This document shows, in pieces, positions 22,575 to 25,495 of a stretch of 36,396 nt of DNA. Source of the stretch: Candidatus Saccharimonadota bacterium (lineage in GTDB: Bacteria; Patescibacteriota; Saccharimonadia; Saccharimonadales; UBA4665); the NCBI GenBank assembly GCA_028289045.1, contig JAQGHB010000051.1:1-36396 (forward strand), given 5' to 3'. Under the pieces are notes generated by a model. The model did no database searches. It was not told the DNA's origin and was given only the letters and a program-made list of their open reading frames with translations. The position numbers and the translations under genes were made by a program. The first letter of the stretch is position 1, and each line of letters begins with the position of its first letter.

Positions 22575-23639
22575 TTACTGCCATCTTTTTCCGCAATATA
22601 ACACAAGTTCTGTTAAGTACGTTTTGAGCTGCACGGGCATGCCAACTTCTTGCAGCACGGTAACGGCGGCTGCGCAGTAGTCGCCTATCAGGGCTTCTAC
22701 TTTTGTATGGGCGCCATTTTTCTGCAAAATCTGTTGTACCGAGTTGAGCTGAACTCTAGTGGCTAATGGATTGCCGAGAATATCAAGGAGCTTTTGGCGA
22801 TCTGTTTGGCTGGAAAGGCGCAGACCGTAACTCATGAGTAGTGTGCGCTTGCCTTCCCGTATGTCGCTGAGCGTGGATTTGCCTAGGCGCTGCTCGTCGC
22901 CAAAAATGCCGAGTATGTCATCTCGCAACTGAAAAGCTGTGCCAATGTGGGCTCCAAATCGTTCTAGCTGATCGAGTTGTGGCTGGCTAGCTCCAGCCAG
23001 CAGCGCCCCGAGCTGTAGCGGCGTCGAAAAGCTATAGGCCGCGGTCTTGGTCTGACTGACGTGTAGGAGATGCGTATCGTCATCTGTTTCTTCCCAGGTA
23101 GTACCCAGTGGCAAAGCAGTATCGGCCAGCTCGCCCCCAACCACCGAAAAAGTGGTCTGATGCACCAAGGCTGCCGCGCGTAGCAGGTCAGTGGCCGGAA
23201 AGTCGCTGGCTAGCAGTACCTCATGCGAAAGATTATGACAAATATCGCCAGCGAGCAGCGCCCAGGCATTGGCGTAGTGATGCGCCTCGCTATCTTTTAT
23301 AGTTTTTCTAAGTTCCTCATAGTAATGACCGCTAATATTGGGGCCGCCCCAGCGCACCACGTCGCGGTCGATAATATCGTCGTGCACCAGAATAAAGGCA
23401 TGGAAAAGCTCTTGACTGGCAGCGACAGGGATAATAGCGTCGGACTTCTTGCCGCCGTAGGCTGTGTACGCTCGAATGACGAGTTCCGGACGCATACGTT
23501 TGCCGCCCCGCGCGATCAGTACGGCAATTTGCTCTAAGAGGTCGGCGTAGGCGGGGCCAATGGCCTGCGCCTGAGCTGATTTACTCGCGAGAAGTTGGGC
23601 TATGAACGCTTCTATTTGCTGCTTTGATGAGTCTCTCAT
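22575..23639 (-). CDS. short-chain trans-prenyl diphosphate synthase (FPP/GGPP synthase family)
   Basis: First Asp-rich motif LVHDDIID with no insertion and Phe at -5. Second motif [31 protein letters not shown]. Its ATG overlaps the upstream stop (ATGA at 23636-23639). Confidence 0.9.
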   Translation of the reverse strand: [354 protein letters not shown]

Positions 23640-25495
23640 TTCTGATATTCCAATATAAATTTTTGAGTTTCCTGGCTACCGGCGACGGCCCGTTCGGCTG
23701 ACGCTTCCAATGGAGTGAGCCAATCTAAAAACAGCTTTGGGCTGGCTATGTCGGATTGAGTGAGCGCTTTACGGGCGGCGCTGCTATGACTCGTGATGAG
23801 CTCGGCGACAACATGTATGGTCGATCGCCAAAATATCTGCCGCAAAACAGGCAATTCGGTTTTGAGGTTGATCGATCCCGCAGCGCCGTGCTCTTTGAGT
23901 AGCAAGCAAGCCACCGCGCTCAAGTGGCCGCGCGCCAGATCTTCTTCCCAATCATGGGCGTCATCATTAAGCTGGCGCGCAATCAGGAAATGATGAAAAA
24001 ATTTCTGAAGTTGCGGCACTTTGGCTGCACTGTTTCCGGCCATCAGCACGCCGCAGGCCGCCAAGCTGTGCCCCCACGAGCGCTCTGCCAGCTGCCGGTA
24101 GTCTCCATATGTCGGCAAGGTGTAGTGTAGCCTGCCCTTTAGCGCGGTGGCCCGAGCTTGAGTAACTTCCCAGAGATTGGCAGTGTCCATGGCGACAAAA
24201 GCGTCATCAACCAGTGCGGTAAAACGTACGTTGTCAGGCAGCGCTTTGGCAAAATGTGTAACCGATTGGCGGAGCGCGTAGTGCGCCGCGCTCAGCAGTG
24301 CCAGCTGTCCTTCCTCATCCAAAAAGTCATCATAGATACTGTAGGCAATCCAGCCATTGAGGCTACCCAGGTTGAGCTGTTCTAACATTTTTTTGTCGGC
24401 TGTACGGTCGTAGGCTCGGGCTGTCAGTGTGGCCATATCGCTAATTTGGCCATCATGATCACGCGCAGCAATTTGCCTAACAATGTTTTGATACGCTGTA
24501 CCGAGTTCCGCGGGTAGCGATTTGCTGCTGGCAAGGGCCGCTCGTATGGTCGGGCTGGTCACGACGAGAGTTTTTTTCGGTGTTTCCTCGGAATGGATTT
24601 CAGAAAGCGCTTCCAGCGCAAACGCAGTCGTCAATGCCGCCGAACCGGCGTAATACTGCTGACCATCGAGATGTGGGTCAACGTACAGCGCTTCGGCTGG
24701 CCAGTGTCCGTCATGGCGCAGCGCCAGCAATCGTCTACGCGCGGAAGCAATTTTGGATGCTGGCAGCTGTATATTGCGGGCGGCGGTTATAAGAAGCGCC
24801 AGCTGCAAGCTAGTATGAGTTTTGGACGCGTCCAAGCTGTCGGCAACGAGTTTTTGGAGCGCATTCAGCTGGGGCCCCTTGTACCAGCGCGACAGAAAAT
24901 ATAACGAAGGAATACTGCTCACGTAGTACGGCGATCTCAGCGTATTTTTCTGGATGGCTTCATCCAAGAAGCTGTTTAGACCAGCCAGCTCAACGCCTTG
25001 CCGGCTAAAAAAAGCACCAATATTAGCGTTGACCACAACATCGATATCTTGCCACTGCGTGCCATCAGATTTCACTAGCCAGGTACGATACGGTCCGCCT
25101 GGTGCCGCCTCGGTGGCAATCAGTAATTTAGCGAATTGAGCCAGCGCGGCGGCATCAACTAGCGTGGAGTTGAAGCTCTGCAGCGCCAAAAGCGCGCAAC
25201 TAGTATCGTCGAGATCATCCGGATACGGGTGCTGCAGGGCCATATCGCTGCTAGTTTGCCAGTAGTTCCAGGATCCCTGCGGACTCTGTTGGCCTTGCAA
25301 AAAAGCGACTGCTGCGGCGCGAATAGAATCAGTACCCGCGACATTGCGCAGACACCATACAATCAGCGATGTAAAAAAGTTGGTAGGATGCTGCCGCGTT
25401 GGTTCAAACGGCATCATCGCAGTACTGGCCTGCCCCATAAAACTGCCGTCCGCGGCTTGCTGGTTCGCCAAGTATGCCACCCCCTCTGTCATCAT
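23636..25495 (-). CDS. fusion protein: N-terminal squalene-hopene-cyclase/prenyltransferase-type alpha/alpha barrel + C-terminal squalene/phytoene-synthase-like class I isoprenoid synthase domain
   Basis: N-terminal roughly 300 aa: QW-type motifs YLANQQAADGSF and FLQGQQSPQGSW, plus YPDDLDDTS (nt 25202-25216), which resembles the DxDDTA of class II cyclases. C-terminal roughly 290 aa: DDFLD (nt 24317-24331) and, 121 aa later, QLNDDAHDWEEDLARG (nt 23942-23968 covers NDDAHDWEE). The second aligns with the QLxNIxRDVxED..RG motif of CrtM/CrtB/SQS. Confidence 0.75.
   Translation of the reverse strand: MMTEGVAYLANQQAADGSFMGQASTAMMPFEPTRQHPTNFFTSLIVWCLRNVAGTDSIRAAAVAFLQGQQSPQGSWNYWQTSSDMALQHPYPDDLDDTSCALLALQSFNSTLVDAAALAQFAKLLIATEAAPGGPYRTWLVKSDGTQWQDIDVVVNANIGAFFSRQGVELAGLNSFLDEAIQKNTLRSPYYVSSIPSLYFLSRWYKGPQLNALQKLVADSLDASKTHTSLQLALLITAARNIQLPASKIASARRRLLALRHDGHWPAEALYVDPHLDGQQYYAGSAALTTAFALEALSEIHSEETPKKTLVVTSPTIRAALASSKSLPAELGTAYQNIVRQIAARDHDGQISDMATLTARAYDRTADKKMLEQLNLGSLNGWIAYSIYDDFLDEEGQLALLSAAHYALRQSVTHFAKALPDNVRFTALVDDAFVAMDTANLWEVTQARATALKGRLHYTLPTYGDYRQLAERSWGHSLAACGVLMAGNSAAKVPQLQKFFHHFLIARQLNDDAHDWEEDLARGHLSAVACLLLKEHGAAGSINLKTELPVLRQIFWRSTIHVVAELITSHSSAARKALTQSDIASPKLFLDWLTPLEASAERAVAGSQETQKFILEYQK

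Follow-up and report, generated by a model that had tools for sequence, protein, structure and literature searches.

We analysed a 36,396-nt stretch of DNA (the window; contig JAQGHB010000051.1 of assembly GCA_028289045.1, Candidatus Saccharimonadota bacterium) that encodes on its reverse strand a 619-amino acid (aa) fusion of a terpene cyclase-like domain with an isoprenoid synthase-like domain. The fusion gene is the fourth member of a cassette in the order response regulator, small peptide, histidine kinase, fusion, and isoprenyl diphosphate synthase (IDS), the last being present in the window and in roughly one in three related loci (Table 1). The stop codon of the kinase gene overlaps the start codon of the fusion gene, and the stop codon of the fusion gene overlaps the start codon of the IDS gene, both as ATGA. 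An original prediction had described the open reading frame (ORF) as a half-size class II cyclase-like barrel joined to a squalene/phytoene synthase-like domain, fed with prenyl diphosphate by the neighbouring gene. We confirmed the ORF and the observations made on it, and the neighbouring gene indeed encodes a polyprenyl synthase, but the interpretation is only partly supported. The decisive context is a small ORF with a conserved Trp and a two-component system, both of which lie beyond that prediction.

Cassette counts given below refer to the best 80 loci from a scan that took a single genome for each GTDB species and in which at least 299 species representatives encode a relative of the fusion. 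Residue conservation was assessed on the window protein and 80 species representatives (81 sequences, identity down to 31%); an earlier alignment comprised 43 family members. The nearest relatives derive from metagenome-assembled genomes (MAGs) of Candidatus Saccharimonadales and other Patescibacteria, which fits the original remark on a reduced genome, and are annotated as hypothetical proteins of 620–660 aa. Hosts of the family include Saccharibacteria, Levyibacteriota, Microgenomates, Doudnabacteria, Colwellbacteria, Daviesbacteria, Shapirobacteria, and Moraniibacteriota. A profile search with the C-terminal domain against 1.84 billion representatives recovered 1682 relatives, with 1192 clusters (50% identity) at E ≤ 1e-30. 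The best 150 of these 1682 relatives were inspected and were all fusions or fragments still carrying the end of the barrel, without any stand-alone alpha domain among them, and thus the two domains travel together. The same cassette was also seen in records titled Gammaproteobacteria, Verrucomicrobiia, Bacillota, Methylomirabilota, and Vitreimonas (loci L007, L029, L031, L035, L051, L063, L065–L067, L072, L075, L077, and L083), which are probably mislabelled or contaminated MAGs and no true occurrences outside the Patescibacteria. Many homologues (P0007, P0018, P0022, P0032, and others) carry the precomputed Pfam accession PF28380.1, and this recent family, PF28380, may already cover part of the fusion protein.

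Table 1 Cassette genes, domains, and motifs with their positions in the window
Feature	Position	Strand	Remarks
OmpR-type response regulator, 229 aa	27097..27786	-	First cassette gene; Response_reg 3.7e-24, Trans_reg_C 1.3e-23
Precursor-peptide gene, 38 aa, MNELLQTVLTDVSARDAASMPDLASSMAETFTPWADVA	26960..27076	-	Between response regulator and kinase genes
Perfect 13-bp hairpin, AUGAAGGGAUCGG-guaa-CCGAUCCCUUCAU	26928..26957	-	Begins 3 nt after the peptide stop codon
Histidine kinase, 468 aa	25492..26898	-	HATPase_c 3.5e-21, HisKA 2.3e-4
Fusion protein, 619 aa	23636..25495	-	Soluble; no predicted transmembrane helix and no hydrophobic segment found
Terpene-cyclase beta domain, residues 1–304	24584..25495	-	Single alpha/alpha barrel
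YPDDLDDTS, residues 91–99	25199..25225	-	DxDD general-acid motif of class II cyclases
All-alpha domain, residues 312–619	23639..24562	-	trans-IDS-like; predicted tryptophan prenyltransferase
DDFLD, residues 389–393	24317..24331	-	First Asp-rich motif (FARM); D389 and D393 at least 95% conserved
RQLNDDAHDWEEDLARG, residues 507–523	23927..23977	-	Second Asp-rich motif (SARM); Gln508-x-x-DDxxD-x-x-x-D
Short-chain IDS, 354 aa	22575..23639	-	PF00348 1.5e-49
Sigma-70-like promoter candidate	27790..27817	-	Consensus scan, 9/12 matches; upstream of the regulator gene

Domain composition of the fusion protein

The AlphaFold2 (AF2) model of the whole fusion (pLDDT 91.7) consists of two domains separated by a low-confidence, disordered linker (residues 305–311). 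Two of the three QW motifs, both noticed originally, follow the strict pattern [FYW][LIV]x3Qx3Gx[WF] at residues 8–19 (YLANQQAADGSF) and 65–76 (FLQGQQSPQGSW), compared with a mean of 0.002 strict matches in the shuffled protein, while the third (residues 256–265, LLALRHDGHW) fits a relaxed pattern. The segment YPDDLDDTS is present as described. Conservation of at least 95% was found for Y91, P92, D94, L95, D96, D97, and T98 in the N-terminal domain and for D389, D393, Q508, L509, D511, D512, H514, D515, W516, and D519 in the C-terminal domain, and the motifs listed in the original prediction rank among the most conserved positions in the 43-member alignment and again in the 81 sequences. Both Asp-rich motifs were also found where they had been placed, but the distance from D389 to D511 is 122 residues and not the 121 originally given.

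For the N-terminal domain, a family profile searched against PDB sequences matched the cyclase domain of AsDMS (E = 7.5e-19), AstC (4.9e-5), and squalene-hopene cyclase (SHC, 0.01), and the single-sequence search recovered the AsDMS cyclase domain at 4e-5 and, marginally, MstE at 0.017. Foldseek ranked the AsDMS structures 9mhs, 9m7d, and 9m7f first (1e-8), followed by SHC-like proteins and SsDMS, a drimenyl diphosphate synthase of Streptomyces. Matches to Pfam and NCBIfam models were all below threshold and fell to the alpha/alpha-toroid families SQHop_cyclase, Prenyltrans, TED, and TIGR01787. YPDDLDDTS aligns with F328-PDDLD333-TTS of AsDMS, an enzyme for which D331, D333 (the proton donor), and Y427 are indispensable (PMC12365925); by alignment these three residues correspond to D94, D96, and Y191 of the fusion, each of which is at least 95% conserved. 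The profile matches and the model thus show that the predicted N-terminal domain consists of one beta barrel of the class II terpene-cyclase kind, which stands alone, is homologous to the cyclase domain of AsDMS, and has an intact DxDD motif. The half-size barrel of the original prediction is hereby borne out by the AsDMS profile match, the single barrel of the AF2 model, and the canonical DxDD, whereas its premise of a two-barrel requirement for class II cyclisation is out of date, as MstE, AsDMS, and AstC each use one (PMC12365925, PMC12232559). Membership in the squalene-hopene/oxidosqualene cyclases was ruled out by the single barrel, a TIGR01787 score of 24 bits against a cut-off of 323, and Pfam SQHop matches that were weak and present in just 3–6 of the 43 members. 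Membership in HAD-TCbeta was ruled out as well, there being an alpha domain as the partner and no HAD phosphatase domain.

The barrel differs from AsDMS around the substrate diphosphate. The Arg residues of the diphosphate-binding cluster of AsDMS (Y373, R378, R380, R425, and R513) have no conserved counterpart in the family: the aligned positions are W148/T146, D150, and the variable positions 189 and 275, with an insertion at 133–150 that aligns uncertainly, and Y190, corresponding to AsDMS Y426, is the sole retained residue around the cluster. This loss hints at a barrel substrate without diphosphate and agrees with cyclisation after prenyl transfer.

The C-terminal domain modelled alone has a pLDDT of 94.7 and a pTM of 0.91. 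Its best 50 Foldseek matches are all trans-IDS or the indole prenyltransferase Ord1, with TM-scores of up to 0.66 (0.57–0.66 to SPS, GGPPS, OPPS, and FPPS). In the modelled structure the domain is shown to have a class I all-alpha isoprenoid-synthase fold of trans-IDS-like type with two invariant Asp-rich motifs, and this part of the original prediction is upheld by both the AF2 model and Foldseek. The conserved aromatic residues W382, Y385, and Y388 precede the FARM, and two basic residues, R409 and R448, reach at least 95% conservation. The invariant Q508-x-x-D511-D512-x-x-D515 matches Q212-x-x-N215-D216-x-x-D219 of StheQ. In the description given by a review, a conserved Gln one helical turn ahead of the (pseudo-)SARM positions the indole in Trp prenyltransferases (PMC13290415).

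At the sequence level, the C-terminal domain has no family match in PDB, Pfam, or NCBIfam (June 2026, which holds no model for it); its profile gave only noise against PDB sequences (E above 0.4), and weak Pfam signals came from Terpene_synth_C and Terpene_syn_C_2 (E 0.002–0.007). Alignment by hhalign to the orthologues of the neighbouring IDS yielded nothing in global mode and the SARM region alone in local mode (E = 0.0025, probability 12%); the aligned segment, FFHHFLIARQLNDDAHD...WEEDLARGHLS, has an 11-residue deletion where the GK loop of IDS stands. Neither an RRG after the first motif (D393) nor a GKRxR-type region occurs in the 43-member alignment, and PF00348 (polyprenyl_synt) matches neither the window protein nor any of the 43 members. 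The missing RRG and the missing PF00348 signal argue that the C-terminal domain is not an ordinary chain-elongating enzyme. They also bear on a PvCPS-type arrangement, in which the alpha domain would elongate dimethylallyl diphosphate with isopentenyl diphosphate to farnesyl or geranylgeranyl diphosphate (FPP or GGPP) and the barrel would cyclise the product. In PvCPS, a prenyltransferase that makes GGPP is reportedly joined to a class II cyclase (PMC12393454), and chain-elongating synthases are the nearest structures found for the alpha domain, whose two Asp-rich motifs are each DDxxD. Set against this are the absence of polyprenyl_synt matches, RRG, and GKRxR-type region among the 43 members, the deletion that takes out the GK loop after the second motif, the complete IDS encoded next door, and the linkage to a peptide gene, which would stay unexplained. 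We therefore give such an arrangement very little credence.

The original interpretation, a head-to-head synthase of the squalene synthase/phytoene synthase (SQS/PSY) type combined with a compact cyclase that yields a cyclised C30/C40 membrane lipid, fared worse still. The motif spacing of about 122 residues agrees with it, and QLNDDAHDWEEDLARG resembles QLxNxxRDxxEDxxRG, which we take to be the corresponding segment of PSY/CrtM. SQS_PSY was nevertheless matched neither by the window protein (E ≤ 1) nor by any of the 43 members (E ≤ 0.01), the best 50 Foldseek matches of the domain contain no SQS, CrtM, or PSY structure, and the peptide and kinase context would have no explanation. Single barrels of about 300 aa of the AsDMS/MstE type handle C15–C20 substrates, while triterpene cyclases need a beta and a gamma domain; this capacity counts against a C30/C40 product, in support of which nothing was found. 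Of the readings discussed here, this one appears the most improbable.

The small peptide gene and the two-component system

The gap between the regulator and kinase genes holds a 38-aa ORF with a Shine-Dalgarno-like AAAGGGGGT 6 nt ahead of its ATG, and a similar ORF lies in this gap in all 61 loci in which both flanking genes were mapped. The peptides of related loci are 35–40 aa long; they start with a conserved leader (M..LL..VLTD.S.R; LLxxVLTDxSxR), continue with a variable stretch, and end in PW plus 1–6 residues. A hidden Markov model (HMM) trained on 18 of these peptides was run on 14,747 small ORFs (20–100 aa, both strands) from the 80 loci and the window and returned 72 matches, one and no more in each matching locus, all of them on the cassette strand, with none elsewhere. 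With one exception (locus L019, see below), matches lie 1480–1790 nt upstream of the fusion gene and just upstream of the kinase gene. Of the 73 loci whose upstream sequence reaches far enough, 72 yielded the peptide and one has a sub-threshold copy; the nine loci without a match comprise this last locus and eight that lack upstream sequence. Every peptide has a Trp 1–6 residues from its C-terminus. It is the single Trp in 68 of 72 and follows a Pro in 59 of 72; 71 of the 72 peptide sequences are unique. NCBIfam (June 2026) has no model for the peptide.

The peptide gene is followed by a hairpin. For the 70 nt after the peptide stop codon in the window, RNAfold calculated −29.4 kcal/mol, and across the 72 loci the post-stop hairpins have a median of −19.6 kcal/mol and a median z of −2.9 against shuffles (z below −2 in 57%). 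The hairpin probably acts as an attenuator or stabilises the mRNA, setting how much peptide is made relative to kinase and enzyme.

The kinase has 5–6 closely spaced transmembrane helices (hydropathy peaks at residues 34–52, 66–84, 92–110, 123–141, and 176–194) with nearly no extracytoplasmic loops and no sensor loop, followed by HisKA and HATPase domains, and is the putative receptor of the modified peptide. Its orthologue, aligned over residues ~16–460 and hence including the membrane part, ends 9–303 nt upstream of the fusion gene on the same strand in 77 of the 80 loci. In most loci the kinase gene is immediately preceded, on its own strand, by an orthologue of the regulator, which clustering detected in 69 of the 80 loci. 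This tight, translationally coupled linkage to the kinase would also be expected if the fusion were a non-catalytic kinase accessory, for example a lipid- or peptide-binding adaptor derived from degenerate terpenoid-enzyme folds. The acid motif and its Tyr partner, the Asp-rich motifs, R409, and R448 are, however, at least 95% conserved among sequences just 31–54% identical, which is the pattern of an active enzyme, and one locus retains fusion and peptide without the kinase. A purely accessory role is accordingly a slim prospect.

Three loci have no adjacent kinase gene: two end at contig edges and the third is L019 (7846–13300), the sole locus with full context that lacks kinase and regulator. 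There, the peptide gene lies 155 nt directly upstream of the fusion gene. By keeping peptide and fusion in the absence of kinase and regulator, L019 pairs the peptide with the enzyme. Elsewhere in this locus we noted a gene for an alpha/beta hydrolase (DUF1749) upstream, in the place of the kinase gene, and a reverse transcriptase gene (RVT_1) ~1.7 kb downstream.

The pairing matters for another account of the two domains, a bifunctional terpene synthase that acts first as a class II and then as a class I enzyme and releases a free terpenoid. The barrel would make drimenyl or copalyl diphosphate from FPP or GGPP, the alpha domain would ionise the diphosphate and so replace the phosphatase domain of AsDMS, the two-component system would merely regulate expression, and the small peptide would be unrelated or regulatory. 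Homology to the AsDMS cyclase domain, the adjacent IDS gene, the wealth of aromatics among the conserved residues of the alpha domain, and the weak Terpene_synth_C and Terpene_syn_C_2 matches all favour this account, and the Asp-rich motifs also fit a DDxxD and a D-D-D variant of the NSE/DTE triad. It leaves the near-universal Trp peptide gene and its pairing with the enzyme in L019 unexplained, though; moreover, the diphosphate-binding Arg residues of AsDMS are not conserved and no terpene cyclase is among the best 50 Foldseek matches of the alpha domain. We consider a free terpenoid product unlikely, yet worth keeping in mind. The idea that the kinase senses the membrane and drives synthesis of a hopanoid-like lipid, as DesK drives its desaturase, was set aside when the conserved Trp peptide came to light, and survives inside the free-terpenoid account alone.

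An IDS gene directly downstream of the fusion gene on the same strand was found in 19–26 of the 80 loci. The window IDS has its best NCBIfam matches to models of the C15–C20 type, and its FARM, as read from the sequence, is DDIID with Phe at −5; it is the likely supplier of the FPP or GGPP donor. Further ORF clusters in the 80 neighbourhoods were antisense shadow ORFs only. The promoter candidate ahead of the regulator gene is weak evidence by itself, the scan having found two sites against 5.7 expected in shuffles. In the AT-rich stretch ahead of the regulator gene (27790–27865, −), a direct repeat, TAATGATT ... 19 nt ... TAATGATT, was noticed by eye; it overlaps the promoter-like site and is a candidate for binding of the regulator. 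An 86-aa ORF (27866–28126, −) close upstream of the regulator gene has no Pfam match and is not conserved across loci.

Proposed maturation of a terpene-decorated peptide

We propose that the fusion is a maturase that prenylates the Trp of a ComX-like peptide and cyclises the attached prenyl group, as part of a two-component cassette distributed across the Patescibacteria, and assign this reading a probability of roughly 60%. Its product is most likely no membrane lipid but a signalling peptide to which a cyclised terpene has been attached. The fusion would be a bifunctional maturase of a ribosomal peptide and the ComQ-equivalent of a ComQXPA-like cassette. The alpha domain would bind FPP or GGPP through Mg2+ at DDFLD and move the prenyl cation onto the indole of the peptide Trp, placed by Gln508 and Asp511, a transfer modelled on ComQ, StheQ, PalQ, Ord1, and the P domain of ChrPC. 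In the beta domain, Asp96, backed by Tyr191, would then donate a proton to the terminal double bond of the prenyl chain, by now attached to the peptide, and the chain would be closed into a drimane- or labdane-like polycycle, a reaction reported for the ChrPC and NctPC C domains. The processed lipopeptide would exit the cell and be sensed within the membrane by the 5–6-helix kinase, which would signal through the OmpR-type regulator. The fallback suggestion of the original prediction, a prenyl-transfer module, would in this case have come close, except that it assigned to the barrel a role that belongs to the C-terminal domain.

Several observations weigh against this proposal. The match in Gln and SARM to StheQ does not discriminate, because ordinary IDS also have FQxxDD, and the second motif of the fusion is a full DDxxD (DDAHD) instead of the pseudo-SARM of ComQ and StheQ. 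Structurally, the C-terminal domain is as near to ordinary chain-elongating synthases as to ComQ-type enzymes, and Ord1 ranks only 26th in Foldseek. Clustering of all ORFs in the 80 neighbourhoods revealed no conserved exporter or leader protease near the cassette. The order of the two reactions and the sensing of the peptide by the kinase are inferred from gene linkage alone. Finally, as the kinase is of the HisKA and the regulator of the OmpR type, and neither of the ComP/ComA type, the cassette is analogous and not orthologous to ComQXPA.

The genomes of the Candidate Phyla Radiation (CPR) are tiny, most of its members have not been cultured, and their biosynthetic capacity is generally regarded as small. 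Our literature search, which did not cover Hubrich et al. 2024 (Chem 10:3224), found no work that links Patescibacteria or Saccharibacteria to terpene cyclases, ComQ/ComX, or peptide quorum sensing. More tentatively, with the odds somewhat against it, the cassette may encode a native pheromone used throughout the phylum, in which the C-terminal Trp is prenylated, the prenyl group is cyclised by the fusion, and a dedicated kinase senses the product within the membrane. If true, these ultra-small episymbionts would have their first assigned cell–cell signalling system, and a pheromone with a cyclised terpene would be on record for the first time. Should the proposed reading hold, a family that bears the label hypothetical in all annotations would turn out to mature a peptide signal decorated with a terpene. 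The signal-and-receptor cassette would offer a concrete handle on kin or host sensing in CPR bacteria, and the many natural variants could serve peptide lipidation tools. The compact beta-alpha fusion would also join the recent prenyltransferase-cyclase class of maturases acting on peptides that are made by the ribosome and modified after translation (RiPPs), and ComX-type Trp prenylation would extend far beyond the Firmicutes, long its supposed limit (PMC4008528).

The wider window contains further genes of note. Directly downstream of the IDS gene are encoded a cohesin-domain protein with a C-terminal transmembrane helix (21250–22467, −) and a protein with three FN3 repeats and a type I dockerin (19722–21269, −); the pair (19722–22467) is not conserved beside the cassette in other loci and is possibly a surface attachment structure of this Saccharibacteria-like genome. 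Together with a sortase gene near the cassette (29670–30263, −) and a gene for a large secreted polysaccharide deacetylase with Big_7 (30739–32742, +), the cohesin and dockerin genes suggest a cell-surface gene neighbourhood. A purine cluster (85–19429) includes two tandem PurP-like genes (DUF1246 and DUF1297, archaeal-type FAICAR synthetase; 5448–7591, +) among guaA, purA, purL, purM, purB, and purN-like genes, and the purine pathway in the window is unusually complete for a CPR-like genome.

Comparison with known systems

The nearest solved relatives of the N-terminal domain, AsDMS and AstC, are likewise built as one beta barrel and have in common with it the PDDLD acid motif, the Tyr of the catalytic site, and a C-terminal YxGSxxLxTAFALEAL segment. 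They differ in having a HAD phosphatase partner, in the AsDMS motif DxDTT as opposed to DxDDT in the fusion, and in the Arg residues by which AsDMS binds the diphosphate of FPP and which are absent here. Compared with the TCbeta enzymes, the fusion thus has the single barrel and the DxDD/Tyr pair but lacks the diphosphate-binding Arg/Tyr cluster. MstE (PDB 6sbb) is likewise a single-barrel class II cyclase and acts on a prenyl chain carried by a non-diphosphate head group, but is a stand-alone enzyme and only a marginal sequence match (E = 0.017). The QW motifs and DxDDT recall the beta domain of SHC, whose gamma domain the fusion does not have. The C-terminal domain shares the all-alpha fold and the DDxxD motifs at FARM and SARM with trans-IDS, but not the PF00348 profile or the residues of the isopentenyl diphosphate site. 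With SQS/PSY it has in common the fold superfamily and the positions of the Asp-rich helices, without a profile or structural match and with a different predicted chemistry.

ComQXPA of Bacillus (PMC4008528) resembles the cassette in combining a trans-IDS-fold enzyme, a small Trp-containing pre-peptide, a polytopic kinase, and a regulator on one strand. Such a gene content is characteristic of peptide-pheromone cassettes in Gram-positive bacteria. Overlapping genes on one strand and a highly variable middle of the peptide are further traits in common with ComQXPA and StheQ-StheX, and StheX of Sphaerobacter has its Trp second from the C-terminus (bioRxiv 10.64898/2026.08.29.745113). ComQ-family enzymes keep the FARM and have a (pseudo-)SARM with a Gln one turn upstream. 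A 2026 review (PMC13290415) gives Trp as the target of every characterised trans-IDS-like prenyltransferase. The fusion has the fold, the FARM, the upstream Gln, and an adjacent Trp-peptide gene. The gene order here, however, is regulator, peptide, kinase, enzyme, and the signalling pair is HisKA/OmpR and not ComP/ComA (NarL/LuxR-type); NCBIfam returned generic kinase matches only. In contrast to ComQ and StheQ, the fusion has an extra cyclase domain and a full DDxxD as its second motif, and no sequence-level similarity to ComQ is detectable.

The drimentine pathway of Streptomyces follows the same chemical logic as the reaction proposed for the fusion: a class I-fold prenyltransferase farnesylates a Trp indole, and protonation-initiated cyclisation to a drimane follows. 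Its substrate is a cyclodipeptide, and the two steps are carried out by separate enzymes, of which the cyclase is a membrane protein.

Closest in architecture are ChrPC and NctPC, whose precursors are reportedly of the proteusin, Nif11, or lasso type. As described in the review, the trans-IDS-like P domain of ChrPC and the ABBA P domain of NctPC are each fused to an MstE-like cyclase domain, which cyclises the peptide-bound C10–C20 prenyl group (PMC13290415, citing Hubrich et al. 2024). The likeness, a prenyltransferase-cyclase fusion working on a ribosomal peptide, is one of architecture and goes as far as this description. Measured against it, the Patescibacteria fusion has its cyclase at the N-terminus and nearest to AsDMS/AstC rather than MstE, its precursor is short and ComX-like, and its cassette includes a two-component system. 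By analogy, the Patescibacteria fusion is best read as a cyclase-prenyltransferase RiPP maturase, as are ChrPC and NctPC.

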